Source: Zestosphaera tikiterensis
GTDB lineage: Archaea; Thermoproteota; Thermoprotei_A; Sulfolobales; NBVN01
Reading direction: 5' to 3'
Length of the DNA stretch: 32,000 nt
Assembly (NCBI GenBank): GCA_003056265.1
Contig: NBVN01000002.1
Coordinates: 570,001-602,000, forward strand
Part shown: piece after piece, positions 6,454 through 31,983 of the stretch
Numbering within the stretch: position 1 is the first letter of the stretch
Layout of the letters: each line of letters starts with the position of its first letter
Made by a program: the position numbers and the translations under genes
The notes under the pieces: generated by a model
The model's input: only the letters and a program-made list of their open reading frames with translations
What the model was told of the DNA's origin: nothing
Databases searched by the model: none

Positions 6454-7563
6454 ATGTTCATTTACATGAATTTACAAATGCTTAATAGCCCACTACGATT
6501 TAATGCGTGGTCAAGGTCTAAGATGCGTGGAGAGTACCCGTTCATAATGGGCGAGTTGAAAACGCTTGAGGCGTCTCGTAAGAACCTACATGAGCTTCTA
6601 TTGAAGATGGCTGACACAGCTTTTCAAGGAAGAGCTTTAGGTGAAGCATATCAAATATTGTTAGATATGTTTTCAGATAAGGACACTACGATATTCTTAG
6701 GTTTGGCTGGATCCATGAGTACTGCGGGGATGTGGAAGCTAATTAAGTGGTTGGTTGAGGAAAGGTTTGTTGACGTTGTTGTCTCCACCGGAGCTATAAT
6801 AAGTGAGGATATATATGAAGCTATGGGGTTTAAGTATTTTAAAACCTACCCATGCGTTGATGACGAAACCCTACTTAAGCATAAGATGGATAGGTTTTAC
6901 GACACAGTAGCTGACGAGATGAATTACAGGAAGATGGAGGGACTTATAAGGGAGTTTATAGAGACATTACCTCCGGACTCAATCTACTCTACGGCCGAGT
7001 TCCTACACCTTTTCGGCAAGTACCTCAACGAAAGAGGTATAGACTCCATAGTCTCAGCTGCTTACCGTTCTAAAGTGCCTGTGTTTTCACCGGCTTTAGT
7101 GGATAGCGGTTACGGTATGGGTGCGCTGATGGCCTACCGTAAAGGTCATAGGATAGTTTTAGATATGGTTAAAGACTTTCATCAAATCGTGGAGGTTGGC
7201 TACCGCTCGAATAAGCTTTCAGCTATATATATAGGGGGTGGGGTTCCTAAGGATTACGTAAACCTCGTGACGGTAGCTCAAACGTTAATAGCTGAGGAGG
7301 AGGGTAGGCACGACTTCTATAAATCTCTAGAGTATGTAGTGCAGTTCACTACGGACGCCCCTCAATGGGGTGGTTTAAGCGGCGCAACTTTAGAGGAGGC
7401 GGTGAGTTGGGGTAAGGTCTCGCCTAAAGCTAAGAAGAAAGTAGTGTATGTTGACGCAACTATAGCTTTGCCAATAGTTGTGCATGCGTTAATTGACGGC
7501 GGTGTAAAGAGGGTGGGTAGATACGACTCTAGTTGGTTGTTTAAAGGGTTAGGAGGTGAGTGA
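6454..7563 (+). CDS. dys: Deoxyhypusine synthase
   Basis: Conserved DHS blocks: [44 protein letters not shown] (catalytic Lys region) and [10 protein letters not shown]. The start is uncertain. ATG 6454 fits the TATA spacing, but ATG 6523 (MRGEYPF) would give a more typical length. Confidence 0.85.
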
Positions 7564-7564
7564 G

Positions 7565-7939
7565 ATGGCATCTCAAGAAGACTTCATAGTTGGTAAGCAT
7601 TACTACGCCAACCTATACGATATAGACGTTAAAGCCGCTTCCGACGAGGAAGGTCTTCGGAAGGCAGTACTTGAGGCTGTGGACAGGGCTAAAATGCATC
7701 TAGTGGAGATCAAGTCTTGGAAGTTCGGAGGTAAGAAGGGAGGGGTTTCAGTAATAGCTTTAGTTGAGGAATCACATATAGCTGTGCATACATGGCTTGA
7801 GTATAGATACGCTACTGTAGATGTATATACTTGCGGCGAACAAAGCGATCCTTTAAAGGGTATTGAAGTGATTATAGAGTTCTTAAAGCCTAAGAACTAT
7901 AAGTTAATGTATGCGGATAGGTCGCAGATATCCGGTTAA
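7565..7939 (+). CDS. Pyruvoyl-dependent decarboxylase proenzyme of the SpeH/AdoMetDC class (either AdoMetDC or the crenarchaeal arginine decarboxylase paralog)
   Basis: [26 protein letters not shown] matches the self-processing E|S site and the HTWPE...FTCG core of small AdoMetDC proenzymes. ATG 7565 lies 1 nt after the DHS stop and is preceded by GGAGGTGAG. The ORF also opens at GTG 7556. Confidence 0.8.
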
Positions 7940-14736: not shown

Positions 14737-14744
14737 TCACCTCC

Positions 14745-14762
14745 GGGCCGGGCTTCCGGCCC
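14745..14762 (-). other. All-GC 7-bp hairpin abutting the helicase SD
   Basis: GGGCCGG-GCTT-CCGGCCC on the + strand (loop AAGC on the minus strand), directly 5' of GGAGGTGAATG on the minus strand. Confidence 0.5.
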
Positions 14763-14840
14763 ATTACCCCTATCCCTGAGGGACTTGGGGTTATGGAACG
14801 CCTTCATCTATCATCGACCTTTAGAAGGTCTCAAAACTTC

Positions 14841-14907
14841 GTGTGGGAGGCATTGTATGGGTTGTGTGTATGCTTTGATTGATTTGTTTGAGGTTTGCCT
14901 CCCACAC
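14841..14907. repeat. 12-bp perfect inverted repeat (GTGTGGGAGGCA ... TGCCTCCCACAC) around a 43-nt G/T-rich spacer
   Basis: Arms at 14841-14852 and 14896-14907, read directly. It lies in the 348-nt non-coding gap between the helicase and the tRNA. Confidence 0.6.
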
Positions 14908-15084
14908 ACATTAAACATCATCACCAAAAACAAACTAAAAACAACAACTTATAAACCTTCCCATCCCCGCCCTAAAGAGGCGAGGCTTTCAGTTGTAACG
15001 ACCGAAAACTCTACTCAAATTCTCACCAAGTTAAAACCTAGCTCTCCCAGACTTTCTTACTGCCTCCAATTTACTAAACGGTTA

Positions 15085-15158
15085 AGCCGCCGGCGGGATT
15101 CGAACCCGCGACCCCCGGCTTACGAGGCCGGTGCTCTACCCGGCTGAGCTACGGCGGC
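15085..15158 (-). tRNA. tRNA-Thr: tRNA-Thr (anticodon CGU), no intron, CCA not encoded
   Basis: The reverse complement folds as a 74-nt cloverleaf. Acceptor GCCGCCG/CGGCGGC, D arm GCUC/GAGC, anticodon arm CCGGC-CUCGUAA-GCCGG, variable loop GGGUC, T arm GCGGG-UUCGAAU-CCCGC, discriminator U. Confidence 0.95.
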
Positions 15159-16645: not shown

Positions 16646-16710
16646 GACTTATAAGCTTAAAACACATTTCTTTATAAACATGGCGAATAATTTAATGGAG
16701 TGTGTTAAGT

Positions 16711-17487
16711 ATGTCTAAAAGCAAGAAGGAAACAGGTAAGGTAATTAAGAAGAAAACCCATAGGAGGGTGTCCCTACCTAAGCTCATGCGGTTAGACGTG
16801 ATGATTTTAGGTATTATAGTATTGTTAATCGTTGTTGGGGTGTACCTCATATTCTTTCCATCACCTACTTTAACCGCTACCTCACCCCCGAAACCTCCGC
16901 TACAGCAAATTAGGGAAGGTGTTAAGGCGGTCTTCACAGATAAGAACCTATCGGCTAGCTTAACCCTAACTTATAGGGTTAGGGGGGCATACCCGCTTGA
17001 GAACTCTACGTTATCCGTCTTAGATTACGTATACTTCCTCATGGGCTACGATAACGTAACCGGCAGTAACTACGTTGACTTCAGTTCAGCACCGTACCTG
17101 CAGCCCTTCTTCAGGGGTTTAGGCTTAACTATGGTTGTCGTAGGTAATACCACTAGGTTGCCGTTGATAGATAGCCCTAGAGAAATTCTATTTAACACGA
17201 AGGTGCTGTCCCACCTCAACATTAGCTATCAAAACTACGGTAAGGAAAGAGATGACGTGATAACCCTAAAGATATCTAACATGGATGGATCGGCTTCCGA
17301 AACAATAACACGTGAAGTTGAAATCGTTAAATACGGGTTGACGGTAAACATCGCAAACACTACTTCAAGGGATGTTAAAGCATTTCTATGGGTGGATAAG
17401 GAGTTTCAAATACCTCTTAAGGCTGAATACGTAATAGACGACAAATACGTCTTAACGCTTGTTTTAGAGGCTGTTAGGAAGGCTTAA
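16711..17487 (+). CDS. Membrane-anchored extracellular protein, unknown function, rich in N-glycosylation sequons
   Basis: Basic N-terminus, one TM helix (VMILGIIVLLIVVGVYLIFF), then a domain with 6 N-x-S/T sequons (NLS, NST, NVT, NTT, NIS, NTT). ATG 16711 is preferred over GTG 16702. Confidence 0.55.
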   Translation: MSKSKKETGKVIKKKTHRRVSLPKLMRLDVMILGIIVLLIVVGVYLIFFPSPTLTATSPPKPPLQQIREGVKAVFTDKNLSASLTLTYRVRGAYPLENSTLSVLDYVYFLMGYDNVTGSNYVDFSSAPYLQPFFRGLGLTMVVVGNTTRLPLIDSPREILFNTKVLSHLNISYQNYGKERDDVITLKISNMDGSASETITREVEIVKYGLTVNIANTTSRDVKAFLWVDKEFQIPLKAEYVIDDKYVLTLVLEAVRKA

Positions 17488-18377: not shown

Positions 18378-19319
18378 TTGGAAGTTGCTGTTAAAATAAG
18401 GAAGCTTGTTAAGAGGTTTGGAAACACCGTAGCTGTAGACTCTCTAGACTTAGACATAAACGAGGGGGAGATCTTCGGTCTTTTAGGTCCTAACGGATCA
18501 GGTAAAACAACGACTTTGTTGATAATCTCAACGGTTTATAAACCAACTTCAGGTGAGGTTTACGTTTACGGACATGACGTAATACGTGAAGGTGATGTTG
18601 TAAGGAAGTACGTTGGGATAGCGTTTCAAGAGCCTAAAGCACTTTGGGTTGATAAGCCTTACGAGCTACTGCTTTGGCATGCTAGAGTCGTTGGCTACTC
18701 AACATCTGAAGCGAGGGAGGTAGTTAAAAACGTTATGGAGGTTTTAGGTCTTTGGGAGCATAGAAATAAATACTTCTATCAACTTAGTGGCGGGACTAGG
18801 AAGAAGGTTGAGATAGCTAAAGTACTTATTCAAAAACCTAAGATAGCTATCTTCGATGAACCAACAGCTCAGGTTGACGTCATATCAAAACATGCTTTAT
18901 GGGACGCTATAAGGGAGTTAAGGACTCAAGGATCTACGGTGATAATCGCCACTAACGACATGTTTGAAGCTGAAAGGATGTGTGAGAGGATAGCTATAAT
19001 ATATAAGGGCAAGCTTAAAGCTTTAGGAACTGTAGAGGAGCTTAAGGACTCCATACCTGAAGGCGACATCGTTGAGTTAATGCTTGATGGGGATGAAAAC
19101 ACTTACTTAAGAGCTGAAGACCTTCTTAAACAGTACGGCAAAACAGTAAGAAGTAACGACTCATTAAAGATTTTCTTAAACAAGGGTGAGGAAAGAGCTA
19201 TTGAAATTCTAGACTTGCTTAAGTCTAGAGGGTTTAAAATACGGAAGATAATGGTTAAAGAACCAAGCTTAGACGACGTCTTCTTCTACATGACCGGAGC
19301 TAAGCTTAAGGAGGGGTGA
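18378..19319 (+). CDS. ABC transporter ATP-binding protein (ABC-2/DrrA-like exporter type)
   Basis: Walker A GPNGSGKTT, Q-loop, signature LSGGTRKK, Walker B IAIFDEPT, plus a C-terminal extra domain. TTG start. Confidence 0.9.
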   Translation: MEVAVKIRKLVKRFGNTVAVDSLDLDINEGEIFGLLGPNGSGKTTTLLIISTVYKPTSGEVYVYGHDVIREGDVVRKYVGIAFQEPKALWVDKPYELLLWHARVVGYSTSEAREVVKNVMEVLGLWEHRNKYFYQLSGGTRKKVEIAKVLIQKPKIAIFDEPTAQVDVISKHALWDAIRELRTQGSTVIIATNDMFEAERMCERIAIIYKGKLKALGTVEELKDSIPEGDIVELMLDGDENTYLRAEDLLKQYGKTVRSNDSLKIFLNKGEERAIEILDLLKSRGFKIRKIMVKEPSLDDVFFYMTGAKLKEG

Positions 19320-19321
19320 GC

Positions 19322-20128
19322 ATGAATCTAAACACGTTAAGAGCGCTATACCTACTCATCCTTTGGGACTTGAATAAAATGCTTAGGAGGGCGGTTTTCG
19401 TAGCTATGCGTGTTATTTGGTTTGTAATTCAAGTCACGGTCTTCGGTTTAGCCCTCACCGCCATGGTTAGGTTAAGAGGTTCTCTTCCGGTGGATGTGAA
19501 CTATTACGAGTTCTACTTACTTGGCATATATACCTCAATGCTTTTCTCGATTAGCGTTTCACGAGCTTACGACATAGCTGAAGAATTTGAGGAAGGTATT
19601 GTAGAGTATCACTTATCACTTCCAATAAGTAGGAGGGTTTTCGCCGTAGGTAGAACTATAGGCGGCGGAATAGCTTCCTTCCTATTTACGCTTCCAATGT
19701 TTGCTGTGGTTTTATGGCTTTTAGAAGACGTTAACGTTGAAGCAGTGATTATATCACTATCTAGTGCTTTATTATTTGCTATGTCCATCACCGGCTTCGT
19801 GCTTTCCATAGTCTTAAGTCTGAAGTCCGGGGACGCTACAGACATAATGTTCGGTGTGTTGGATTCTCTACTTATAAGGCTCTCCACAGTTTTCTACCCG
19901 GCGGTTGTTTTAAGTAGGTACGCCCCCTATCTCTACGTAGCGTTGGTAAACCCTATATCGCATATAGCTGACTTCCTTAGGACACTTTTTCTTTTTGAAG
20001 AATATAGAGCGATAGCTATAGCCTCGCCGATAGCTATGGCGTCATACATACTAGGTCTTGCCGTAGGGTTCTCGAGCTTAGCCATGTATATAGTGGAGAA
20101 AAAGGTTGAAGGGGGTGGTTGGAGATAG
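19322..20128 (+). CDS. ABC-2 type transporter permease
   Basis: About 6 TM segments. The start lies 2 nt after the ATPase stop and is preceded by AAGGAGGGG. The ORF also opens at GTG 19316. Confidence 0.75.
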   Translation: MNLNTLRALYLLILWDLNKMLRRAVFVAMRVIWFVIQVTVFGLALTAMVRLRGSLPVDVNYYEFYLLGIYTSMLFSISVSRAYDIAEEFEEGIVEYHLSLPISRRVFAVGRTIGGGIASFLFTLPMFAVVLWLLEDVNVEAVIISLSSALLFAMSITGFVLSIVLSLKSGDATDIMFGVLDSLLIRLSTVFYPAVVLSRYAPYLYVALVNPISHIADFLRTLFLFEEYRAIAIASPIAMASYILGLAVGFSSLAMYIVEKKVEGGGWR

Positions 20129-20898
20129 TGGGGTATTTAAGCGCTGCTTGGACCGTCGCTTCAAGAGATATATCCAGGTTTTGGAAGTATAGGTTCTGGC
20201 TTGCCGGTCAACTAGCTATGAACTTAGCTGACGTGTTTATATTCGCGTTAGTTTTCAACAACATAGTTAATAAGGCATACATACCTGACTATCTGAAGTT
20301 CATGACGCCCGGCGTAGCAGCAATAGCTACTTTCGCAGCGGCTTTCTCCATAGGTAGGGAGGTAGGCGTTGAGATAAGGAGGGAAGTTACGCAGTATCTA
20401 CTCTCCCTACCTATGTCGAGAAGCGCCTTCGTCTTCGGGAGGATCTTAGGCGGTGCTTTAAGGGGTATGATATACCAGGTTTCGTTTCTGGTTTTAGCTG
20501 CGTTGATAGTTAACGTCCCTACAACAACTAAAGCCCTCTACATAGCCTTAACGACTGTCATGCTCACGTTCTCCATGTCTAGCCTAGCCATAGCTATCTC
20601 CACATCAACTAAAGACTTCAACCTTCAAGCAACCCTTAGGGCTTTAACGTATTACATACTCTTCTTCCTTTCAAACGTGTTCTACCCTAAGGAAGTCCTA
20701 GCCATGAGGTTTCCACCTCAAATACTTCAGATAGTGATCAACACCCCAGTCTCCTTAGCCTCAGACATATATAGATGGGGGTTTGGATACTACGAAAACG
20801 TAGATGCCGTAAGTAAAATCCTCCTCCTACTTATATGGAGCTTAACCCTAACGACGTTAGCTTCGTTAGCGTACTTAAGAAACTTAACTAAGCAATAA
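20119..20898 (+). CDS. ABC-2 type transporter permease (second subunit)
   Basis: About 6 TM segments, paralogous in layout to the preceding permease (LSLPxSR motif in both). The start is TTG 20119, or GTG 20128 overlapping the upstream stop. Confidence 0.75.
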   Translation: MEIVGYLSAAWTVASRDISRFWKYRFWLAGQLAMNLADVFIFALVFNNIVNKAYIPDYLKFMTPGVAAIATFAAAFSIGREVGVEIRREVTQYLLSLPMSRSAFVFGRILGGALRGMIYQVSFLVLAALIVNVPTTTKALYIALTTVMLTFSMSSLAIAISTSTKDFNLQATLRALTYYILFFLSNVFYPKEVLAMRFPPQILQIVINTPVSLASDIYRWGFGYYENVDAVSKILLLLIWSLTLTTLASLAYLRNLTKQ

Positions 20899-21111: not shown

Positions 21112-22029
21112 ATGAACATATCTTTTGAGGTGATTAAAGCGTCACCGCAAGCTAAAAATAAACTTCTAGCGCTAGCTATAATAGTTATACTGTTAGTAAC
21201 GGTAATAGTTGTAGGTGCTTTACTTAAAGTTAAGTTATTCAATCCTAAGGTTCCCGTATCTTCATTCGTTATATTAGCAACTCTGTTAATCGTTGGTTAC
21301 TTATTCATGATTCAAGCTATGGAGGGCGTAACCTTCCCTGTGAGGAAGATAAGCGCTTTTGATGCTATTGAGGAGGGTGTGGCTAGGTCTGTAGAGATGG
21401 GCAGGCCTGTACACGTCACCATAGGTTATGGAACTATATCCTCGTCTATGGCCCCCCAGTACGTAGCTGGTTTAGGTGTTTTAGCCCACGTTGCTAGGTT
21501 GGCTGGTAAGTACGGAGCTAAACTCATAGCTACTTTAGGCGTTCCTGAAGCTATAGCTAGCGTTGAAGAACTGGTTAGAGACGGGTATTACTCGGCTGGA
21601 AGGCCGGAACTCTATAACCCAACATATAACGTTAGATACTTTACAGATCAGCAGTTTGCGTATGCGTCGGCAGTTCAGGCAACTATAGTTAGGGAGAATG
21701 TGGGGGCGAATATTGTAGTGGGTCCGTTCTACGCTGAATCACTGATATTCATGGAGGCAGGCAATATGACTGGAGCGTTTCAAATAGCTGGAACAGCACG
21801 TGAAACCCAAATACCTTTCTTCGTAATCACAGCTGACTATGCTTTCATCGGCGAGGAGATTTTCGCTGCTGGCGCTTTAGCTTCAGGTGATAGAGTGGTT
21901 TTAGCGTCTATTAGAGGTCAAGACTTAGGTAAGTTAATCACGATAGCGCTTGTGGTCTTAGGCATTATATTGTTGGGGTTAGGTCTTAAGCTAAGTGATT
22001 GGCTTAACTGGGTTTGGACTGTGGGGTGA
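21112..22029 (+). CDS. Unknown membrane protein B1: N-terminal TM helices, soluble domain of about 200 aa, C-terminal TM helix
   Basis: 305-aa ORF with hydrophobic segments at both ends and a G/A-rich soluble core (GRPVHVTIGYG...AGKYGAKLIATLG). I recognise no catalytic motif. Confidence 0.6.
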   Translation: MNISFEVIKASPQAKNKLLALAIIVILLVTVIVVGALLKVKLFNPKVPVSSFVILATLLIVGYLFMIQAMEGVTFPVRKISAFDAIEEGVARSVEMGRPVHVTIGYGTISSSMAPQYVAGLGVLAHVARLAGKYGAKLIATLGVPEAIASVEELVRDGYYSAGRPELYNPTYNVRYFTDQQFAYASAVQATIVRENVGANIVVGPFYAESLIFMEAGNMTGAFQIAGTARETQIPFFVITADYAFIGEEIFAAGALASGDRVVLASIRGQDLGKLITIALVVLGIILLGLGLKLSDWLNWVWTVG

Positions 22030-22034
22030 GTTGA

Positions 22035-22724
22035 ATGAGCTTGGTTGTTAGGAGGGTATTACCTCAATTCATCGTGAGCTTAGTGATAATACTTATGCTG
22101 ATCTTCTACTTCTTCTATATAAACGATGACGTAGCTAAGACGTTCTCAGCAGACGATAAAGCTTTAAGTGATTGGGCTGTGATAATATCCTCCTTCGCTT
22201 TAATCGTCGGTGGTGTTGACATATTCAGGTTCCACTTAACGCAGCTTAGGAGGGGTGGCTTAAAGCAAGCGCCTTTCAGCGTAGTTACGTTGATTGCTGA
22301 GCTAACTATGGTTGTTTTCGGCGCTTACGGTCTAGCTTTAAGCTATTTAAACCCCGCTTTAGGCATAACAATAACAACTCAACCTCAGTTTAGGTGGTTA
22401 TACACGTATGTTTACGCACCAAGCGACTCCGCCATGTATTCCATACTAGTGTTTTATATAGCGTCAGCATCATATAGAGCCTTCAGGGTTAGAAATCCTA
22501 TGGCTTTACTACTACTTATAGTGGCGATAATAGTTATGTTAGGTAATACCAGCTTAGGAGCGTTGATATGGCCTGGATTCCTGCCTTTAAGGGATTGGAT
22601 TATGACAATACCTAATACCGCCGCTTTTAGACCTATAACGATAGGTGCTGGGTTAGGCGTCATAATACTAGGGCTTAGGATGCTTGTATGGAGAGAAGTT
22701 AGCTGGATGGGTAGGAGGGAGTAG
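22035..22724 (+). CDS. Unknown polytopic membrane protein B2
   Basis: 229 aa with about 6 hydrophobic segments. ATG lies 5 nt after the B1 stop, with GGGGTGAG upstream. Confidence 0.6.
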   Translation: MSLVVRRVLPQFIVSLVIILMLIFYFFYINDDVAKTFSADDKALSDWAVIISSFALIVGGVDIFRFHLTQLRRGGLKQAPFSVVTLIAELTMVVFGAYGLALSYLNPALGITITTQPQFRWLYTYVYAPSDSAMYSILVFYIASASYRAFRVRNPMALLLLIVAIIVMLGNTSLGALIWPGFLPLRDWIMTIPNTAAFRPITIGAGLGVIILGLRMLVWREVSWMGRRE

Positions 22725-22726
22725 CC

Positions 22727-23578
22727 ATGAGTTTCCTGAGTAAAGTTGAGAAAGTTTTAAGTGCGAGGGAACTTCTATATACGTTACTCTTAGTAGCTGT
22801 TATAGCTCCTATACTCTCACCTATAGGCTTACCCATAGGTATTTCAAGCAGAACTAGGGACGTATATAACTATATAGAGAATAACTTAAAGCCCGGTTGC
22901 CATGTCTACGTGGAGGTCTATTATGAAGTAGCGGCGCGAGGTGAGTTAGAGCCTGCCTTAATGGCTTTAACTAAGCAATTCTTCGATAAAGGATGTAAGA
23001 TCGTGTATGGGTCCTTGATTTCAACAGGCCCTATAGTGTTCTCGCTAATGTTGGCTGGTGCGCCAGACATATTTGCCGGTAAGGAATATGGTAAGGATTA
23101 TGTGTTCTTAGGCTACATCTCCGGTGGTGAGTCAGCAGCAGCTTCATTAGCTAAGAGTATTAAAGGCACTGTAAAAGTAGACAACTACGGCAACCCGCTT
23201 GAGACCTTACCGCTTATGAAGGAGGTCGATTCAGCAACAGACTTCGACTTAGTTGTTATAGTGTCTTCCGGGACGGATACATTTAATTACTACGTAAGGC
23301 AGTGGTACACACCATACCATACGCCGCTGTTGTTCGCAGCTTTAAGCGTTATAGCACCCTCCATAGAACCTTTCGTCGGTGCTAAACAAGCTATCGGCAT
23401 GATAGTAGGTCAAAGAGGTGCTGCTGAGTATGAATTACTAGTCGGTAGGAAGGGTTTAGGGATAGCTTCGATGGACGCTCAAAGCATCTCGCATTTGCTG
23501 ATAATAGTCTTCATAGTTTTAGGTAACGTAGTGTACTGGGGTATGAGGGTTACTTCCCGCGGAGGTGGTAGGAAATGA
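22727..23578 (+). CDS. Unknown membrane protein B3: N-terminal TM, soluble domain, C-terminal TM (architecture like B1)
   Basis: 283 aa. ATG lies 2 nt after the B2 stop, with AGGAGGGAG upstream. The C-terminal segment DAQSISHLLIIVFIVLG parallels RGQDLGKLITIALVVLG of B1. Confidence 0.6.
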   Translation: MSFLSKVEKVLSARELLYTLLLVAVIAPILSPIGLPIGISSRTRDVYNYIENNLKPGCHVYVEVYYEVAARGELEPALMALTKQFFDKGCKIVYGSLISTGPIVFSLMLAGAPDIFAGKEYGKDYVFLGYISGGESAAASLAKSIKGTVKVDNYGNPLETLPLMKEVDSATDFDLVVIVSSGTDTFNYYVRQWYTPYHTPLLFAALSVIAPSIEPFVGAKQAIGMIVGQRGAAEYELLVGRKGLGIASMDAQSISHLLIIVFIVLGNVVYWGMRVTSRGGGRK

Positions 23579-24300
23579 TTAGTTGGGAAGTTTTAGGTGC
23601 TTGGTTAGGCGCTGCTTTAGTGGTTTGGATATACAGCTTTGTCTATAGGGACAACGTGTTCTATAAGTTCGCAGAACATCTCTTTGTAGGTGTTGCGGCA
23701 GGTTATTCGATATCTTTAGCGTTAGATAGCCTTAATAGAGTGGCTATAAAGCCTTTATCGACGAACCCTGCTGTTTCATGGCATTACGTAATAGCGATTA
23801 TCTTAGGTTTACTCATGTTTATGAAATACTCTAAAAAGTATTACTGGTTGGCTAGGTATGGTGTAGGTGTTAACATAGCTGTGGGGACTGCCTTAGCGTT
23901 GAGAACCACGCCTATGGCTAACATAGTTAGACAAATAACGGCTACGATACTACCTCTATGGACGCCAGACCCCGTAACAACCCTTAATAACTGGCTCCTA
24001 GTCTTGATAACTTTAGGCGGTCTTACGTACTTCCTCTTTACGATATTCCCGAAAAAACCTGAAGCTGGTAAGCCCTCACTACCGTACTACGTCTATAGGG
24101 TACTTTACACGATAGGAATCTACGGAATGATGGTAGGTTTCGGTGCGTTATTCGCTAACACCATAATGACTAGAGTAGGGTTCTTAATCAGCATATATCT
24201 GCAGTACCTTCAACCTAACGCTTGGGCTTCTATAACTGCTGCTTTACTTGCGGCGATAGCTATAATAGCGGGTATAGTAATGGGTAGGAGTAGGAAATGA
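23575..24300 (+). CDS. Unknown polytopic membrane protein B4
   Basis: 241 aa with about 6 hydrophobic segments. ATGA start/stop overlap with B3. Confidence 0.6.
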   Translation: MISWEVLGAWLGAALVVWIYSFVYRDNVFYKFAEHLFVGVAAGYSISLALDSLNRVAIKPLSTNPAVSWHYVIAIILGLLMFMKYSKKYYWLARYGVGVNIAVGTALALRTTPMANIVRQITATILPLWTPDPVTTLNNWLLVLITLGGLTYFLFTIFPKKPEAGKPSLPYYVYRVLYTIGIYGMMVGFGALFANTIMTRVGFLISIYLQYLQPNAWASITAALLAAIAIIAGIVMGRSRK

Positions 24301-24554
24301 CTGAGGAAGTACCTGAAGACGTGTTGATAGATAAGATAGCGCGGAAGGTAGTTGAATCAAAACTTGAAACTATAGTTATTTTTTTCTTAGAAACTATAGG
24401 TCCTATGGGTAGACTCTGGTCTCAAATCGCTCGTATCTACTTACAACCACTATTAATACTTTTAGGTTCATATAGCGAAGCTTTTTTAAAGATCCTTCAA
24501 GACCCTGACAAGGTGGAGAAGCTAGTAGCTAAGATAGAACAGTTAAGCAGTTAA
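24297..24554 (+). CDS. Small acidic/amphipathic protein B5, unknown function
   Basis: 85 aa. ATGA start/stop overlap with B4. Confidence 0.5.
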   Translation: MTEEVPEDVLIDKIARKVVESKLETIVIFFLETIGPMGRLWSQIARIYLQPLLILLGSYSEAFLKILQDPDKVEKLVAKIEQLSS

Positions 24555-24579: not shown

Positions 24580-24948
24580 GTGATTATATTGCGTGCGGAG
24601 AAAGAGTTTCGTGCTGTGAAGCTTTCAATCGATAAGGAGAATGTTAAGATAGCGGGGAGGGATGGGGAGTTACTCATAAGTTTGCCTGAGATACGTAGGG
24701 TTGGAGTGGAGAAAAAATTTAATAAAGTGCTTGCTTCCTTAGTTGTGGTTATGGCTATCATATCTTTAGCAACTTCAAACGCTCTATATCTGTTGCTGAC
24801 GTTCATTATGTTAGCAGTAACTGGAATGACAAGGGAGGAGATCTTGATAATAGAGTATGGAAATAACTTAGTTAAGGTAAGAGGCCTTCAAAAAGCGGAG
24901 CTTAATAAAGCTTTAAACTTCTTTAAAGAGTATTTCACTCACTTATAA
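24580..24948 (+). CDS. Small protein with central TM hairpin flanked by beta-rich segments, unknown function
   Basis: 122 aa, GTG start 25 nt after B5. Central segment VLASLVVVMAIISLATSNALYLLLTFIMLAVTG. I chose it over the antisense 78-aa ORF because of its coherent TM hairpin. Confidence 0.45.
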   Translation: MIILRAEKEFRAVKLSIDKENVKIAGRDGELLISLPEIRRVGVEKKFNKVLASLVVVMAIISLATSNALYLLLTFIMLAVTGMTREEILIIEYGNNLVKVRGLQKAELNKALNFFKEYFTHL

Positions 24949-26068
24949 TCTCCACATTAGCTCTTGGAATCGTAACTATTCTACCGTCCTGCAACCTAAC
25001 CTTAACCACCCTAACAGGAGATTCCGTCTCTATCTCCTGAAGCTCCACAGGCAGATCCACAACAGTGCCTACAGCACCGAAGTAGGGATATCTTATTATT
25101 CGAACGACACTCCCGACCTTCATCCTACCCTCCCCTAAAGGCTCCATACCCTCTTCACGTACGCTACCTTTCAAAGGTATTATGACCTCAGGCCTTATGA
25201 CGCCTGCCCTAACTTGAGTTACTCCGCTTAACGCTGCGTCGTTGCCGTCATTCTCTACAAATATTTTGAAAGCCCTTTCAGACATAGGTAGTTTGCCGAA
25301 ACCCTCAGTAAGTATTAAAGTATACCCTAGATTCTCCCTACCCGTGATGGCCACACCTATCCTATACCCTAGGATCTTCTCCACATCCGTTATTTTAGCA
25401 CCGCCCACGATAACTCCCTTAACGCCGACCTTCCTAGCTTTGTTCAATGCTTCATACGTTGCTAAAGAACCTCCTACTATAACCTTACCTGCGTGTGCTT
25501 CAGAAATTTTACTTTCGTCTAGAACTTCATCAGGCCGTGAGACAACTACCTCAAGCGTTCCATGAGTTTCACCGCCGAAACCTATGATGCCTTGAACGTA
25601 AGCTGCTGGAACCCCTATAACTACCGACTCCCCAGGACTTACATCCTCAACAACTCCCTTAATGTAGGCAGAGACATCAATAACTCTAGGAGGTTCTCTA
25701 ATGGTTATGTGGCCGGTAACCTCACTTACGCTTTCCACGACGCCATTTATAGGTGACGTAATAGCTTTTTTAAAGAGGCCGAATAAAGCGCTGTACTTAG
25801 CTATCACGTCACCTTGCTTTACGTTATCACCAACCTTAACGGTAACGTAGTTACTTATCTCTTCAGGGTCTATGCCTAACATCTCAGCTAACTTAACTAC
25901 GTACGGAGCTCCCTCAAGATAACATCTACCGACTATAGTGTCGAAGGAGACCTCCTGACCCTTCTTAACTAAGATCTCACCTTTAACGGGGAGTGATCTG
26001 ACCTTCCTTACGTAAGTTCTAGGAACTACAGCTAAGCCTGGCGTATAAGCGAAGCTTTCCTCACTCAA
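24935..26068 (-). CDS. Unknown protein with N-terminal barrel-sandwich-hybrid (biotinyl/lipoyl-like) fold signature and C-terminal KOW-like segment; partner of the GlmL-like ATPase
   Basis: 377 aa. KVGDNVKQGDVIAKY is a typical hybrid-barrel hairpin with no MKM biotinylation site. There is a repeated GKVIVGG...VKGVIVGG motif. C-terminal GSVVRIIRYPYFGAVGTVVDL is KOW-like. The start lies 3 nt downstream of the upstream gene's stop. Confidence 0.6.
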   Translation of the reverse strand: MSEESFAYTPGLAVVPRTYVRKVRSLPVKGEILVKKGQEVSFDTIVGRCYLEGAPYVVKLAEMLGIDPEEISNYVTVKVGDNVKQGDVIAKYSALFGLFKKAITSPINGVVESVSEVTGHITIREPPRVIDVSAYIKGVVEDVSPGESVVIGVPAAYVQGIIGFGGETHGTLEVVVSRPDEVLDESKISEAHAGKVIVGGSLATYEALNKARKVGVKGVIVGGAKITDVEKILGYRIGVAITGRENLGYTLILTEGFGKLPMSERAFKIFVENDGNDAALSGVTQVRAGVIRPEVIIPLKGSVREEGMEPLGEGRMKVGSVVRIIRYPYFGAVGTVVDLPVELQEIETESPVRVVKVRLQDGRIVTIPRANVEIISE

Positions 26069-26071
26069 TCT

Positions 26072-27922
26072 TCACACCTCCACCCTATTCATTAATTGAT
26101 GCGGGTAAAGATCCATAGACTTAAACCACCCAAGAACTAACTTCCTCCGTTCCTTATCGCTAGCCGGTAAGTAAATAGGTCTGCCCCTCCCATCTAAAAC
26201 CAAGCCTACAACACCTCCACGAACCTTCCTACTAACTGGTTTGCCGGCACCGGCGCCGAAGTCGAAGTTCCTAGAGGGTTTCACAGAAACCTCTACTTCT
26301 ACGTTATAAGGTATTGAGATCCTGACGATTTCACCAAACCTTAACACTACATTCTCCTCCCTACCATCATCGAAGGTAAGTTCTACGTCAGCTACCTTCT
26401 CACCTAACGCGTCGAAACCTTTACCAGCTACTACAGTACCTAAAGGTACTAAACACTCCTTCTCGAAAATTTCGAGAGCTATCTCCTTATACAGTTTAGA
26501 TAAAACACCTAAATGAGGTATCATGAAGACGCTGTCCTGCATTACGTACGTAAAGCCGATGGGTTGGAACGCATCTATTAATATAATCATTGATTGAGCC
26601 CTTCTAGGGGCTCTAGACAGTAACCCTCCAGTACCTATTATGTAGTTAACCCTCATCATATCTATGTAAGTTTCTTCAGCCTTCACTTCTTCGAAAATGT
26701 CTGAGATTGTCCTCTCTTTCTTCACGCCTTTAAGTTCTCTAGCTAAGTACTTGTGGTGGTTAAAAGCCATCCTTATAGACTCCCTCGCTATTGCGTGCTC
26801 CACAACCAAATCCTCAAGGGTCATGGGTATGGTTGTAGGTCTTATCATTTTATTGTAGACAATACTCATGATGTCTTCATCCGTCATATCGAAAGGTATC
26901 CACCTACGTACGTTATCTATCCCAGCTTCTTTAAAGACGTTTCCTATGCTGTAACTCATGCCTAAATTAGCGCTTACAGTCCTTAAGAACCTCCCGTCGA
27001 AAACTGAGTATACGTTAGTAGTCGCTCCACCCATACCAACCCCTAAAACGTTAACGCCCTTCATCTCAGCGAAGGTTCTTATCATTAAACCTTCAGCAGC
27101 CGGTGTGGGCATGATGTCTGTAGAGGTAAGTTTCATAAGTTTCTCATATCCTGGGGCGTGAGCCATGACGTGCTCCATAAAAAGCTCTAGTATAGCGTTT
27201 CTAGCCGGCTCAACTCTCTCAACCTCTATCTGAGGTCTTATGTTATCAACGACTCTAACGTCGAAGAAATCGGATGAGAGAATCCTCTTTATGTCTTCCC
27301 TAGCGTTTTTATTCCCAGCGTATATCACTGGCAACCTGTAGCTTACTCCAAACCTAGGTTTAGGCTTAGCCACAGCTAAGACTTCAGCCATCTCTAAAAC
27401 GTGGGTTTTATCACCGCCGTCGGTACCTCCAGCTAGGAGAACCATGTCAGGCCTTAAGAACCTCACTATATTAACTTTCTCGTGTGTCTCCCTACCGTCG
27501 TCAACAGCTATTACGTCCATCACTATAGCCCCGGCTCCTAAAGCAGCTCTTTGAGCGCTTTCCGCCGTTATACTTTTCACAACACCCATGACCAACATCT
27601 GTAGACCGCCTCCGGCACTACTTGTTGATACGTAGACGTCTATACCTGTTTTATTACCTCTGTAAGGCATTATGAACTTCAGCTCTTCTGTACTATAGTC
27701 TATTATTTTATGACCTGTTAGCTCCTCAACTTCCTTAACAGCATTTCTAACGCCTTTAGTTACGTCTTCAACGGGTTTTTCAACTGTAGTTGGTGCTTCG
27801 CCACTAGCTAGAAACTTCCACTCACCGTTTACCTTACCGAAGAATCTAGCCTTAGTTGTTGTACTTCCGACGTCGGTGGCTAAGATGAACCTAGGTTCTG
27901 AATTTAACCCGCTCATACCCAT
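26072..27922 (-). CDS. GlmL/MutL-family ASKHA (actin-like) ATPase, long form with beta-rich C-terminal extension
   Basis: 616 aa. ILATDVGSTTTKA (phosphate-1 DxGSTxxK), LLAGGTDGGD and IIGTGGLLS motifs match the glutamate mutase accessory protein family (hydantoinase-A branch). Confidence 0.75.
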   Translation of the reverse strand: MGMSGLNSEPRFILATDVGSTTTKARFFGKVNGEWKFLASGEAPTTVEKPVEDVTKGVRNAVKEVEELTGHKIIDYSTEELKFIMPYRGNKTGIDVYVSTSSAGGGLQMLVMGVVKSITAESAQRAALGAGAIVMDVIAVDDGRETHEKVNIVRFLRPDMVLLAGGTDGGDKTHVLEMAEVLAVAKPKPRFGVSYRLPVIYAGNKNAREDIKRILSSDFFDVRVVDNIRPQIEVERVEPARNAILELFMEHVMAHAPGYEKLMKLTSTDIMPTPAAEGLMIRTFAEMKGVNVLGVGMGGATTNVYSVFDGRFLRTVSANLGMSYSIGNVFKEAGIDNVRRWIPFDMTDEDIMSIVYNKMIRPTTIPMTLEDLVVEHAIARESIRMAFNHHKYLARELKGVKKERTISDIFEEVKAEETYIDMMRVNYIIGTGGLLSRAPRRAQSMIILIDAFQPIGFTYVMQDSVFMIPHLGVLSKLYKEIALEIFEKECLVPLGTVVAGKGFDALGEKVADVELTFDDGREENVVLRFGEIVRISIPYNVEVEVSVKPSRNFDFGAGAGKPVSRKVRGGVVGLVLDGRGRPIYLPASDKERRKLVLGWFKSMDLYPHQLMNRVEV

Positions 27923-27981
27923 CCCTAGATACGCTTTTAACTTAATTAAAAAGTGTTTAATAATTTGGTCTTAGTCATTCA

Positions 27982-29583
27982 CTAAAATTGCTTAAACCTT
28001 CTTAGAATCGCGCCGTTCCTAACGTTTTTATCCAGCCTTCCATTAACCACCGTAGGTCTTCCATTCACTATAACGTATCTTATACCTCTTGGGTATGAAT
28101 GCGGGTTTTCATACGTTGCGGTATCCTCTACAACGTAGTAGTTGAATATAGTTATATCTGCTTTGAAGCCAGGCCTTATCAGGCCTCTATCCCATAGCTT
28201 AAGTTTTCTAGCTGGTAGTGAAGTCATCTTTCTAATGGCCTCCGTCAAGGTTAGAGCTTTCCTCTCCCTAACGTATTTAGCGATGATTCTAGGGAAGGTT
28301 CCGTACCTTCTCGGATGTGGTTTACCCTCACCGAATTTCCCAACGGACCCGTCACTACCTATAGCTACGTAGGGGTGTGCAATCACTTTCTCTACGTCTT
28401 CCTCACTCATGCCGAATGAGACCATGCCAGTAGCTAATTCGTCATCTATGAGTAACTTCACCATAGCGTTTACGGGGTCTAAGCCTAAGCGTTCAGCCAC
28501 TTTATCCATTCTCAAGCCTTCAAATTCTTTATGTTTTAAGGAGAATGAAATCATTATATCGCTCCACGATATATACCGTTCTTCGAAAGCCACCCCTCCA
28601 AGCCTTTCAGTAAGTTCCCTTACCACAGCAGGGTCTTTAAGCTTCTTAAGGACTTCTTCCGTGCTTCCCTCCCTTATATCCTGCGGTAGGAGAGCTGAAA
28701 GAGAAGTTGAAGATGCTGTGTATGGGTAAGCATCGGCTGAAACGTCGAAACCTCTGGAGGCATAGTCTGATATGATCCCTAAAGCCGTAGTTACTTTACC
28801 CCAGTTAGGTCGTCCACTAGCTTTAAGGTGGGAGATCTCTACAGTGATCCCTGCCTTAACACCTATCGTTATGGCTTCATTTATTGAATCAAGTAAACCC
28901 ACACCTTCGTTTCTCATGTGGGTTGCGTACATACCACCGTATCTTGAAGCTACCTTAGCCAACTCAATTATCTCATCTGTTGAGGCGAAAGTCCCCGGGA
29001 TATATATTAAACCCGTGCTAAGGCCTAAAGCCCCAGCCTCCATAGCTTCCTTAACTAACTCACGCATCTTTGTTAAATCACTTTCAGACGGTTTAGAGGA
29101 CGTGAAGCCTAATACAGCAGACCTCACAGTGCCGTGACCTACTAAAGGAGCTATATTTACTGAAGGCTTAAGCGACTCTAGAGCATTTAAGTAATCGTTG
29201 AAAGACCTCCAACTCACGACAACCTCCGGATGTTCCTTTTTAATTTCTTTAATTACTTCATCTTTATTAACGTCTGTTAAAGGCGCTGGAGACCAGCCAC
29301 AGTTCCCAACAACTAACGTAGTGACTCCTTGAAGTATGTAGTTATCAGCTGTAGGCACTTCAAAAATGCTTATATCGCTGTGGTTGTGAATATCTATAAA
29401 TCCGGGAGCCACTATAAGGTTTTTAGCGTCTATGACTTCCTCGGATTTAACGCCTGTCAAATCACCTATAGCTTTTATCGTGTCTCCTACAATGCCTACG
29501 TCAGATTTAAACGGGGGTGTTCCAGAACCGTCTACTATTACGCCGTTACGTATGATTAAATCAAACTCCAATTTAAACACCAA
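27982..29583 (-). CDS. N-acyl-D-amino-acid deacylase (D-aminoacylase) family amidohydrolase
   Basis: N-terminal DLIIRNGVIVDGSG, metal motif GFIDIHNHSD, and the family-specific VVGNCG block carrying the Cys zinc ligand. 533 aa. The start is TTG 29583 or GTG 29580. Confidence 0.85.
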   Translation of the reverse strand: MVFKLEFDLIIRNGVIVDGSGTPPFKSDVGIVGDTIKAIGDLTGVKSEEVIDAKNLIVAPGFIDIHNHSDISIFEVPTADNYILQGVTTLVVGNCGWSPAPLTDVNKDEVIKEIKKEHPEVVVSWRSFNDYLNALESLKPSVNIAPLVGHGTVRSAVLGFTSSKPSESDLTKMRELVKEAMEAGALGLSTGLIYIPGTFASTDEIIELAKVASRYGGMYATHMRNEGVGLLDSINEAITIGVKAGITVEISHLKASGRPNWGKVTTALGIISDYASRGFDVSADAYPYTASSTSLSALLPQDIREGSTEEVLKKLKDPAVVRELTERLGGVAFEERYISWSDIMISFSLKHKEFEGLRMDKVAERLGLDPVNAMVKLLIDDELATGMVSFGMSEEDVEKVIAHPYVAIGSDGSVGKFGEGKPHPRRYGTFPRIIAKYVRERKALTLTEAIRKMTSLPARKLKLWDRGLIRPGFKADITIFNYYVVEDTATYENPHSYPRGIRYVIVNGRPTVVNGRLDKNVRNGAILRRFKQF

Positions 29584-31110: not shown

Positions 31111-31983
31111 ATGAAGCGCTCTCACATAGCCCTTCTAATCATCGGTGTTGGCCTGCTTTCAGGCCTTATAGTCTTTAGCGAGTTAAATCCGTTGAAGCTT
31201 TTCGAAGTTAACGTTAGCGTTCAAGTACCAAGCGAGGAAAACGTTATAGAGTTGAAACTCGACGTTAGAAACTCTTCAGGCTCCGTAACATACTCTAACG
31301 TATCTTCGCTATACCTAGATAGAGACGTTAACGTCATGTTTAAGTTGTTATCTGCTGAGGTTAATGGAGACGTTAAAATAACGTTAAGTGGGCAGGTAAC
31401 GTTAGTTAGCGATGATGGAATTAAGTACGTAGTGCCTATGCCCTGCTTATTCGCAAACAACGGATGCTTCAGAGTGCTTATGCTCATACCCGGTTATGAT
31501 ACTCCAATGTCGTTGCCTAGGGGTAAGTACTCAATATCTTTAACGTTAACATGGTATGGAGCTTCAGGTGAGGGGATTATTAAGTTAAGAGTAGGCCTAG
31601 TGGAAGAAACTGTTGAGGTGGTTAAAATTGGTTCAAGACCTGAGAACACTACAGGTTGGGTAACTGTTGAAGGATCCACTAAAAGTTATGCTGTGTTGGT
31701 AGATCCTAAAGCAGTTAAGGTTGGGGGATGTCTTTACGCGACGCACGTATGGGTTTGGATTTTCACGCCGTCAAACACTACAGACGTAAAGAACGTTAAA
31801 GTAGTTGTTGAGGATTTATACAGTGGTAAACAACTTTATAACGCCGACGTAGACCTAGATAAATCAGGTATTTATAGGGAAGCTTTAATGAAGGTTATAT
31901 TACCGCAGGGCAAGTACATATTGAAAATCTTCATAACCCCGGAAACAGCCTTACAGACTACCTTATCTGTTGAAACATGTTAA
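31111..31983 (+). CDS. Secreted/membrane-anchored protein, unknown function, beta-rich with N-glycosylation sequons
   Basis: N-terminal MKRSH plus a hydrophobic helix. GAGGTG lies 8 nt upstream. Sequons are NVS, NSS, NVS, NTT and NTT. Confidence 0.6.
   Translation: MKRSHIALLIIGVGLLSGLIVFSELNPLKLFEVNVSVQVPSEENVIELKLDVRNSSGSVTYSNVSSLYLDRDVNVMFKLLSAEVNGDVKITLSGQVTLVSDDGIKYVVPMPCLFANNGCFRVLMLIPGYDTPMSLPRGKYSISLTLTWYGASGEGIIKLRVGLVEETVEVVKIGSRPENTTGWVTVEGSTKSYAVLVDPKAVKVGGCLYATHVWVWIFTPSNTTDVKNVKVVVEDLYSGKQLYNADVDLDKSGIYREALMKVILPQGKYILKIFITPETALQTTLSVETC

Follow-up and report, generated by a model that had tools for sequence, protein, structure and literature searches.

A long-form GlmL/MutL-family ATPase and its partner protein belong to a conserved seven-gene module with membrane proteins in Archaea and Bacteria

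Introduction

Proteins of the GlmL/MutL family are accessory or reactivase-like components encoded between the subunits of coenzyme B12-dependent glutamate mutase. Pfam likens the family to the hydantoinase branch within the hydantoinase/oxoprolinase family, a likeness that counts for an enzymatic role of the kind weighed below. Here we describe a long member of this family, termed L (616 amino acids, aa), and the 377-aa protein P encoded directly behind it, in a stretch of 32,000 nucleotides (nt) from Zestosphaera tikiterensis (contig NBVN01000002.1, positions 570,001 to 602,000), which in its full length is referred to as the window. A preliminary description of this DNA had suggested that the pair, together with a neighboring D-aminoacylase and an M20 deacylase, could represent an undescribed ATP-dependent step of (D-)amino acid or N-acyl amino acid metabolism.

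Two-subunit ATP-dependent lactamases are established (PMC8453981). The listing of the ASKHA superfamily, to which L belongs, includes PilM, GspL and FtsA, the cytoplasmic parts of membrane machines (PMC5597319).

In the window, L and P are part of a conserved module of seven genes, M1, M2, M3, M4, S5, L and P, of which M1-M4 encode membrane proteins and S5 a small protein. P, M2, M3, M4 and S5 belong to no named family and M1 only to a domain of unknown function. Literature searches returned nothing on the module, no paper in the collection searched mentions DUF6754, PF13941, TIGR01319 or DUF2118, and none of the resources consulted assigns a function to the module. The preliminary description overlooked the convergent operon at 21112–24554; in many phyla it is this operon that is truly conserved together with L-P.

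Results

L and P are encoded as a pair and occur as natural fusions

We scanned one genome per species for P, which is present in no fewer than 599 species-level genomes. When 1.84 billion cluster representatives, from a library clustered at 50% identity, were searched exhaustively with a profile, 3575 P-family clusters were obtained, 1110 of them with E <= 1e-30. The loci analyzed below are the best 80 of the at least 599 species together with loci fetched earlier; they are cited by locus number (L001 and so on), and flanks of 10 kb were examined per related locus. Two denominators are used: 66 loci with enough upstream DNA and 43 loci with full flanks.

In 50 of the 66 loci, which come from different species, P is preceded on its own strand by an L gene that ends within 400 nt of it, a pairing far beyond chance. 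From the stop codon of L to the codon of a conserved alanine in P (Ala7) the median distance is 27 nt (60 pairs). The junction in the window reads ...GGAGGTG TGA, aga, TTG, with a spacer of 3 nt and TTG as the start of P; a Shine-Dalgarno-like GGAGGTG lies within the 3' end of the L gene, ahead of P, so that translation of P is coupled to that of L. Furthermore, two representatives of P-family clusters with a length of about 1000 aa (P0382 and P0478) are complete L-P fusions, in which a full-length L, 47-50% identical to the L of the window, is joined by a linker of 15-35 aa to a full-length P. Since they fall into separate clusters of a library built at 50% identity, they represent independent events. 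Both are found in canonical operons of the module introduced below, S5-[L-P]-M1-M2-M3 (L094) and M4-S5-[L-P] (L095). The tight junction and the fusions suggest that L and P physically act as one unit. The conserved linkage of L to its partner, for which the preliminary description had proposed a neighborhood survey, is borne out by the 50 loci and the two fusions.

L-P is part of a seven-gene module

In the first distant contexts of P, L-P is located beside a DUF6754 protein of ~260 aa, followed by proteins of ~225, 284 and 241 aa and often by one of ~130 aa. These genes map one-to-one onto the plus-strand open reading frames (ORFs) M1-M4 and S5 of the window. There the module forms two convergent transcription units, 21112–24554 on the plus strand and 24935–27922 on the minus strand; in most bacteria it is a single operon. 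At least three of M1-M4 lie within 10 kb of P in 25 of the 43 full-flank loci, co-directional with L-P in 21 of these 25. In a map of the module across loci based on hidden Markov models, the operons follow two canonical forms, S5-L-P-M1-M2-M3-M4 (e.g. L025, L027, L053, L060, L074, L075, L084, L086) and M1-M2-M3-M4-S5-L-P (e.g. L009, L016, L030, L032, L038, L062, L067), and they occur in Archaea and more than 15 bacterial phyla. Throughout the mapped loci the internal order M1-M2-M3-M4 is constant. The convergent layout of the window is also found in the relatives L006, L008, L012, L047, L088 and L089.

Carriers include archaea as well as monoderm and diderm bacteria: Thermoproteota, Bathyarchaeia, Methanomethylicia, Bacillota, Armatimonadota, Nitrospirota, WOR-3, Marinimicrobia, Zixibacteria and many other, mostly uncultivated lineages. 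Archaeal and bacterial copies of L and P are ~50-60% identical. Such a wide and patchy distribution, with an identity that suggests horizontal transfer, would suit an anti-phage defense system or the cargo of a mobile element. We consider this explanation the most improbable of those discussed here, as eight proteins gave no PADLOC match at E <= 0.01, there are no integrases, transposases or repeats beside the module, the neighbors are housekeeping or catabolic genes, a consistent placement in defense islands was not seen, and the GC content of the region is unremarkable.

The module proteins differ in their degree of conservation. The median identity to the window proteins is 54% for L, 48% for P, 41% for M1 and 32-34% for M2, M3 and M4, and paralogs within one genome follow the same order (L 70%, P 57%, M1 52%, M2/M3/M4 44-46%). 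Gene numbers vary as well: L070 and L081 combine two or three divergent tandem M1-M4 sets with just one L-P pair, whereas there are two sets and two pairs in L004 and L043, and one set and two pairs in Bacillota/Clostridiales. Furthermore, P is found without L in the arrangement P-M1-M2-M3-M4 (L069) and together with S5 and M1-M4 (L059). The gradient of conservation, the numbers of sets and pairs and the occurrence of P without L resemble a conserved cytoplasmic motor working on a diversified membrane or external specificity part.

The membrane proteins of the module

M1 matches DUF6754 (PF20539) with 226.8 bits at a gathering threshold of 27, always comes first in the M1-M2-M3-M4 order and is the most conserved membrane subunit. 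Its transmembrane helices are arranged around a domain of ~203-205 aa. According to the positive-inside rule, applied to 28 M1 and 38 M3 orthologs, this domain is predicted to be cytoplasmic, with a K+R value of 5.2 on the domain side vs 2.1 at the termini. In M3, an N-terminal and a long C-terminal transmembrane helix surround a Rossmann-like domain of ~200-220 aa (AlphaFold2 model, predicted local distance difference test score (pLDDT) 88.8), which is predicted to be extracytoplasmic (K+R 2.4 on the domain side vs 6.3 at the termini). Foldseek returned generic Rossmann matches only for M3, with E > 2e-3 and query-relative template modeling (TM) scores <= 0.34. The polytopic proteins M2 and M4 are marked in alignments by the motif SAAYRAFRxR and by KFAEHxFVG with an invariant Glu, respectively. 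For M2, M3 and M4 there was no match in Pfam, NCBIfam or the PDB sequences, and for P, M1-M4 and S5 we found no characterized relative, solved structure or literature. We also considered M1/M3 and M2/M4 as paralogous pairs of a pseudo-symmetric transporter; this was rejected with hhalign probabilities <= 1.7%.

S5 begins with a hydrophobic hairpin whose LE..KP turn is invariant; an amphipathic NVEKLI helix and a K/E-rich tail come next. It is 85 aa long in the window, where its start overlaps the stop of M4, and ~130 aa elsewhere. In most bacterial loci it lies immediately upstream of L, even if M1-M4 are not nearby (L022, L054, L080, L001). The gene of the single-helix protein S6 lies opposite to P, and the two genes share 14 nt at their 3' ends; homologs of S6 were found only in relatives of the order Sulfolobales. 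In L091 and L092, where M1-M4-S5-L-P are all on one strand, S6 keeps the convergent overlap at the 3' end of P and is located downstream of a 410-aa Amidohydro_1 gene.

Our tentative reading, held with somewhat less than even confidence, is that the module is an ATP-driven transmembrane machine, likely for the uptake of amino-acid- or peptide-derived solutes, and that L-P would be its cytoplasmic part. Alternatively, L could be a chaperone-type ASKHA ATPase, similar to Hsp70 or DdrA, which together with P assembles, gates, repairs or regulates the M1-M4 complex; this complex would then be a channel, a sensor or an envelope or lipid enzyme, and not itself engage in ATP-driven transport. The family members that carry names, GlmL and Or-4, have only accessory or reactivase-like proposed roles judging from their NCBIfam names, and PilM, GspL and FtsA are ASKHA proteins that serve membrane machines (PMC5597319). 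P and M1-M4 occur without an adjacent L in some genomes, as they would if L were a dispensable accessory factor, and the M3 domain bears a weak resemblance to a GT-B glycosyltransferase half and to other Rossmann folds that bind nucleotides. However, L is the most conserved of the module proteins and is fused to P in two lineages, which suggests a stoichiometric core subunit and not a chaperone that binds transiently. The presence of the module in archaea, monoderms and diderms argues against a function bound to one type of envelope, and its neighbors belong to amino-acid and peptide catabolism and not to envelope biogenesis. We regard a chaperone role as improbable.

L is a long-form member of the GlmL/MutL family

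L matches the MutL family (PF13941) with 404.2 bits at a gathering threshold of 27; the match extends over residues 13-490 and covers the whole 450-position model. The ORFs, the junction and this match agree with the initial assignment of a GlmL/MutL-family gene 3 nt from the gene of its partner. For the NCBIfam equivalog GlmL (NF040745, methylaspartate mutase accessory protein) the score is 230.8 bits, under the cut-off of 475, for Or-4 (NF040744, GlmL-related, ornithine degradation) 225.3 bits, under the cut-off of 600, and for the subfamily model glmL_fam 165, under the cut-off of 204. L therefore represents a distinct long-form subfamily. Its ASKHA core (~13-490) is followed by a C-terminal domain of ~125 aa (~495-616) with the motif GGVVGxxxDxRGRP, which is missing from the PF13941 model and from the GlmL and Or-4 models of 448 to 459 positions.

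An alignment of 30 diverse orthologs from Archaea and Bacteria has a mean column identity of 69%. No variation occurs in ATDVGSTTTKAR, LLAGGTDGG, GVGLGGATTNVYS and GTGGLLS, which bind the nucleotide in this family, and all ASKHA phosphate-1, phosphate-2 and adenosine motifs are intact. From these invariant motifs we infer that L is an active ATPase. Sequence and profile searches of the PDB sequences gave no solved structure for any relative of L. Public databases give L orthologs the names 'glutamate mutase L' or 'methylaspartate mutase'; for the long-form subfamily these names mislead.

The database names, together with the clear membership in PF13941, would suit a conventional GlmL-type accessory protein or reactivase for a B12-dependent mutase encoded elsewhere in the genome. 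We searched for such a mutase in several ways. None of the other sizeable ORFs of the 32-kb window contains a B12-binding or mutase domain according to Pfam. A regular expression for the B12 signature (DxHxxG...SxL...GG) found no match in the window and 93 related loci (1.52 Mb); it did match a positive control sequence. Among the 25 most frequent families (at least two genes each) of 150 flanking genes there is no mutase family. L is thus an orphan with respect to B12 mutases in the window, as the preliminary description had stated, and also in the 93 loci. In addition, L lies far under the GlmL and Or-4 cut-offs and under that of glmL_fam, it carries the extra C-terminal domain, and its conserved partners are P and the membrane proteins. 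A role as mutase chaperone, already doubted in the preliminary description, is unlikely, and with the window and the 93 related loci as the DNA covered we regard a mutase encoded elsewhere as a highly improbable explanation for L.

P combines three folds and has no characterized relative

The AlphaFold2 model of P (pLDDT 85.5) shows three regions, an N-terminal barrel-sandwich-hybrid/beta region (~1-175), a small alpha/beta Rossmann-like domain with Gly-rich loops at the ends of its strands (~180-300) and, at the C-terminus, a KOW/SH3-like barrel (~320-377). The C-terminus matches the KOW5 domain of Spt5 (8p4e_Z, 7okx_Z) in Foldseek with a probability of 1.0, a target TM score of 0.82-0.84 and a root-mean-square deviation of 1.3-1.4 A over ~60 residues. 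Apart from such domain-level matches (KOW, biotinyl domain, NusG DII), with query-relative TM scores <= 0.17, Foldseek found no whole-chain analogue of P. The hairpin KVGDNVKQGDVIAKY lacks MKM, and P contains the repeated motif GxVIVGG as GKVIVGGS and KGVIVGGA, so that sequence and Foldseek agree with the hairpin, the repeated motif and the KOW-like C-terminus that had been described before. Likewise the Pfam, NCBIfam, PDB-sequence and Foldseek searches concur in placing P in no characterized family.

An alignment of 32 sequences revealed the invariant blocks AYTPGL, QGIxGxGGE, IGVAITGxE, TEGFG, TQxRAGVxRPE and PRANVEII. At the tip of the hairpin, the conserved 'IA' is followed by K, G, R, H, E or F; as the lysine is not conserved, P is not a biotin or lipoate (swinging-arm) carrier. 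We also rejected P as an NqrA/RnfC-like subunit: the scores for RnfC_N (23.0 vs 25.6) and NqrA_N (16.5 vs 25) are under the cut-offs, and Nqr/Rnf chains are absent from the top 50 Foldseek matches. A profile search of the PDB sequences with P gave only non-significant phosphate-loop matches, namely a weak similarity to the phosphate-binding loops of NanE and GGGP synthase.

These features bear on the possibility that L-P is a soluble two-subunit enzyme which acts with ATP on an amino-acid derivative, by the logic of hydantoinase, 5-oxoprolinase and caprolactamase. The ASKHA subunit would use ATP to activate an amide or lactam, the reaction would be completed by the partner, and M1-M4 and S5 would be a separate dedicated permease; this extends the idea of the preliminary description by the membrane genes. 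Lactamases of two subunits have a precedent (PMC8453981), and P shows an enzyme-like conservation: acidic as well as basic residues are invariant, and its Rossmann-like domain has Gly-rich loops, in addition to the non-significant resemblance to the NanE and GGGP synthase loops. Amidohydrolases and M20 enzymes recur beside archaeal modules, and M1-M4 are not nearby in 18 of the 43 full-flank loci. On the other hand, Pfam searches gave no match at E <= 0.01 for Hydantoinase_A in L, which yields only MutL, or for Hydantoinase_B in P, and judging from Foldseek the fold combination of P resembles no known enzyme. The occurrence of P with M1-M4 and without L (L069, L059) is unexpected if P is solely the catalytic partner of L, and the membrane-hairpin-like S5 lies directly upstream of L in most operons. 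The membrane context favors a transmembrane machine over a soluble enzyme, and we consider a hydantoinase-like step possible but unlikely.

Several variants of P contexts were noticed. Genomes of Bacillota/Clostridiales with two tandem L-P pairs are represented by L014, L024, L028, L039, L049 and L064. The second P of these pairs is ~450 aa long (e.g. P0400), with an insertion or duplication of ~75 aa in the barrel-sandwich-hybrid region at the N-terminus, and this variant makes its own cluster set in the search of representatives. Solitary orthologous P genes, 46-49% identical and surrounded by unrelated genes with neither L nor M1-M4 within 10 kb, are found in Armatimonadota, WOR-3 and Stahlbacteria (L040, L041, L050, L051, L058, L068 and L073). 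In WOR-3 and Stahlbacteria a conserved, beta-barrel-like protein of 277-298 aa follows P, the copy in L051 having a weak PorV match. Large proteins encoded beside P in loci without L were considered as substitute ATPases and rejected; they are a topoisomerase, TPR proteins, a cargo protein of the type IX secretion system (T9SS) and a Met-zincin, all unrelated.

Neighboring genes

In the window L-P is preceded on the same strand by an amidohydrolase gene, 59 nt upstream of L. The gap is A/T-rich and contains a TATA-like TTTTTAATTAA ~27 nt ahead of the ATG of L; it is probably the own promoter of the L-P pair. The amidohydrolase carries the GNCG metal-ligand block and matches D-aminoacylase 1M7J with E = 2.5e-87 and the N-acyl-D-glutamate deacylase 3GIP with 1.5e-84. 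Its score for the NCBIfam PRK09061 subfamily is 214, under the cut-off of 340, so that the protein is assigned to the D-aminoacylase family as a whole and not to one substrate. The M20 gene is divergent from the amidohydrolase gene across a gap of 108 nt, and its product passes the DapE-type equivalog NF006400 with 421 bits (cut-off 374). Coordinates and matches of both genes thus agree with the D-aminoacylase across an A/T-rich gap and the divergent M20 deacylase reported earlier; altogether, all sequence-level statements of the preliminary description hold, and its interpretation is partly supported.

The part of this interpretation that concerns the two hydrolases has a limited reach. A locus whose P is 91% identical (L088) has the same D-aminoacylase/M20 layout as the window, and in Zestosphaera L089 and L090 the M20 and amidohydrolase genes are followed by M1-M4-S5-S6, co-directional and at the other end of the module. 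In other archaea the module adjoins genes for a 410-aa Amidohydro_1 protein, for an MlrC peptidase or for a peptide ABC system of the Opp type. The pair is thus kept in close archaeal relatives and other hydrolases recur, but among the 43 full-flank loci a D-aminoacylase homolog is found within 10 kb of P in only 2 and an M20 homolog in 1.

Among 150 flanking genes the top families are the glycine-cleavage P protein (6), ornithine/diaminopimelate decarboxylase (4) and amidohydrolases (4), further families being M55 D-aminopeptidase (3), TldD/PmbA (3) and S58 (2). M42, M19 and M24 peptidases also recur as neighbors. By clustering, a class-III aminotransferase was found near the module in 7 loci and a complete GcvT/H/PA/PB set in 5-7 loci, and PALP enzymes recur as well. 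Glycine-cleavage genes lie directly 5' of S5-L-P-M1-M2-M3-M4 in L027, L052, L053, L060, L074, L080 and L084, with GcvT and GcvP in all seven and GcvH in five of them. The hosts are Eisenbacteria, Fermentibacteria and related bacterial metagenome-assembled genomes, and this arrangement hints at glycine or a glycine-yielding substrate in these lineages. Overall, there is a loose amino-acid and amide-hydrolase theme around the module, which finds support at the level of lineages and has no universal hydrolase partner.

Three further uncharacterized gene families, all absent from the window, accompany the module in other genomes. A 215-aa membrane protein without a Pfam or NCBIfam match is encoded directly upstream of S5 in 12 loci from several phyla (L001:6842-7489), a DUF483-like protein of ~316 aa, which has a Cys-rich motif, immediately behind P in 10 loci (L054:11281-12231), and a DUF3792-like membrane protein of ~140 aa divergently from L in 9 archaeal loci (L013:546-965).

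Other genes of the window

The features of the window are listed in Table 1. An ABC-2-type exporter operon ends 213 nt upstream of M1 and is not kept beside the module in other genomes. The CstA gene, ~17 kb from the module, fits a peptide-utilizing lifestyle and shows no linkage to the module. The genes for deoxyhypusine synthase and S-adenosylmethionine decarboxylase form a compact pair for polyamine and hypusine synthesis. The order of TauE, a 261-aa ORF and pyruvate kinase is retained in L088. The product of the 290-aa ORF downstream of the M20 gene is probably secreted or surface-bound. An ORF at 14686–15147 on the plus strand (153 aa) is probably spurious, because the tRNA-Thr gene falls inside it.

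Table 1. Position, strand and basis of assignment of the features in the 32,000-nt window
Feature	Position	Strand	Basis
L, GlmL/MutL-family ASKHA ATPase, 616 aa	26072-27922	-	ORF table, PF13941
P, barrel-sandwich-hybrid/Rossmann-like/KOW protein, 377 aa	24935-26068	-	ORF table, AlphaFold2 model
M1, DUF6754 membrane protein, 305 aa	21112-22029	+	PF20539
M2, polytopic membrane protein, 229 aa, ~5-6 transmembrane helices	22035-22724	+	alignment
M3, membrane protein, 283 aa	22727-23578	+	AlphaFold2 model, topology
M4, polytopic membrane protein, 241 aa, ~5 transmembrane helices	23575-24300	+	alignment
S5, small protein, 85 aa	24297-24554	+	alignment
S6, 122 aa, one transmembrane helix, lineage-specific	24580-24948	+	homology
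D-aminoacylase-family amidohydrolase, 533 aa	27982-29583	-	1M7J match, GNCG
M20 ArgE/DapE-type deacylase, 416 aa	29692-30942	+	NF006400
A/T-rich spacer 5' of L, 59 nt	27923-27981	-	sequence inspection
ABC-2-type exporter operon: ABC ATPase with DrrA C-terminal domain and two ABC-2 permeases	18378-20898	+	Pfam
CstA carbon-starvation (peptide/pyruvate) transporter, 611 aa	2416-4251	+	
Deoxyhypusine synthase, directly followed by pyruvoyl-type S-adenosylmethionine decarboxylase	6454-7939	+	
261-aa ORF beside pyruvate kinase, without Pfam match	16702-17487	+	
290-aa ORF with N-terminal hydrophobic segment, without Pfam match	31111-31983	+	
tRNA-Thr (anticodon CGT)	15085-15158	-	

Discussion

A putative membrane machine with an actin-fold ATPase

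If the module is an ATP-driven transmembrane machine, its parts could work together as follows. ATP hydrolysis on L would drive the machine, and P, probably docked on the domain of M1 that is predicted to be cytoplasmic, would link L with the membrane proteins. The path through the membrane may be formed by M2 and M4, M3 would present a folded domain on the outside and S5 could serve as a small membrane-hairpin adaptor. P is tied to the membrane part because it stays with M1-M4 in the absence of L in L069 and L059, and the module would span the membrane, given the opposite predicted locations of the M1 domain (inside) and the M3 domain (outside). Such a machine would most likely use ATP to take up solutes derived from amino acids or peptides; export of such solutes is less likely. 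In the archaeal lineage of the window the cargo might be passed to the adjacent D-aminoacylase and M20 enzymes, which would fit N-acylated or peptidic amino acids. The whole would work like a modular ATP-driven importer with an actin-fold instead of a P-loop ATPase.

A number of observations weigh against this view. M1-M4 are more than 10 kb away from P in 18 of the 43 full-flank loci, and L is not directly upstream of P in 16 of the 66 loci; these 16 include eight full-flank loci, from Armatimonadota, WOR-3, Stahlbacteria and unclassified bacteria, in which P is situated among unrelated genes. M1-M4 or L are thus distant in some loci, and the parts of the module can therefore separate in the genome. 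M2 and M4 do not match transporter families, and the idea that the outward domain of M3 is a solute-binding protein found no support, with no solute-binding-protein fold among its Foldseek matches. The placement of the M1 and M3 domains is a prediction from the positive-inside rule. The theme among the neighbors is diffuse: no family exceeds ~10% of the loci, and the numbers are raw counts. The argument is drawn entirely from gene context, and we know of no transporter that is energized by an ASKHA ATPase.

In its widest form the transport view would make the module the first membrane transport or translocation machine energized by an ASKHA ATPase, in contrast to machines that depend on P-loop or rotary ATPases or on ion gradients. 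L-P would be a universal motor for interchangeable M1-M4 sets, and the machine would be widespread in peptide- and amino-acid-degrading Archaea and Bacteria. We put this forward with caution and consider it doubtful.

Independent of the reading, six of the seven module proteins have no characterized relative, solved structure or literature, and the seventh, L, is misannotated in public databases. A function for the module would correct this widespread misannotation and would give a role to DUF6754 and to five unnamed families. If transport is the right reading, the module would introduce a new energy-coupling principle in membrane biology and would supply a part now missing from models of the nutrition of uncultivated microbes that degrade proteins and amino acids. 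The module is directly testable, its genes being compact and co-operonic and the thermophile proteins suited to structural work.

Comparison with known systems

GlmL and Or-4 have PF13941, the ASKHA fold and the nucleotide-binding motifs in common with L over residues 13-490. L differs from both by scores under the two equivalog cut-offs and by the extra C-terminal domain of ~125 aa. In contrast to GlmL, L has no adjoining B12-binding protein in the loci scanned; its partners are P and usually S5 and M1-M4.

To our knowledge, hydantoinase-type enzymes described so far are soluble, and none of them works with a dedicated membrane partner of four proteins. The architecture of P is unrelated to that of the second subunit of such enzymes. 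Hydantoinase, 5-oxoprolinase and caprolactamase (HyuA-HyuB, CapA-CapB) are similar to L-P in that an ASKHA subunit is encoded beside a second subunit and in their association with amide or amino-acid metabolism (PMC8453981).

Taken singly, the domains of P also recall known proteins. With the N-terminal domain of NqrA/RnfC it has the barrel-sandwich-hybrid hairpin and weak RnfC_N and NqrA_N matches in common, but no iron-sulfur or flavin motifs. Biotinyl and lipoyl carriers resemble P by the Foldseek matches to biotinyl domains; unlike P they have a modifiable MKM/DKA lysine.

PilM, GspL, FtsA, Hsp70 and the DdrA-DdrB system are comparable to L as actin-fold proteins that work with a small partner, with bitopic membrane proteins or with both. 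In sequence, L is related to PilM, GspL, FtsA, Hsp70 and DdrA only at the level of the superfamily, and P, S5 and M1-M4 are unrelated to PilN/O, GspM and DdrB.

In its general plan the module is similar to ABC and energy-coupling factor (ECF) importers, which also combine a cytoplasmic ATPase with several membrane subunits in one operon and in which the ATPase is likewise the most conserved and the membrane or external parts the most divergent. As with the S-components of ECF importers, several membrane sets share one ATPase module in some genomes. The module differs from these importers in its actin-fold (ASKHA) ATPase, which replaces a P-loop/Walker ATPase, and in the outward-facing domain of M3, which is not a known solute-binding fold; transport itself is a conjecture for the module, and profile searches detected no ABC_tran, BPD_transp or ECF families in its seven proteins. 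The mechanism outlined above is one that we infer; in composition, the module matches nothing described.

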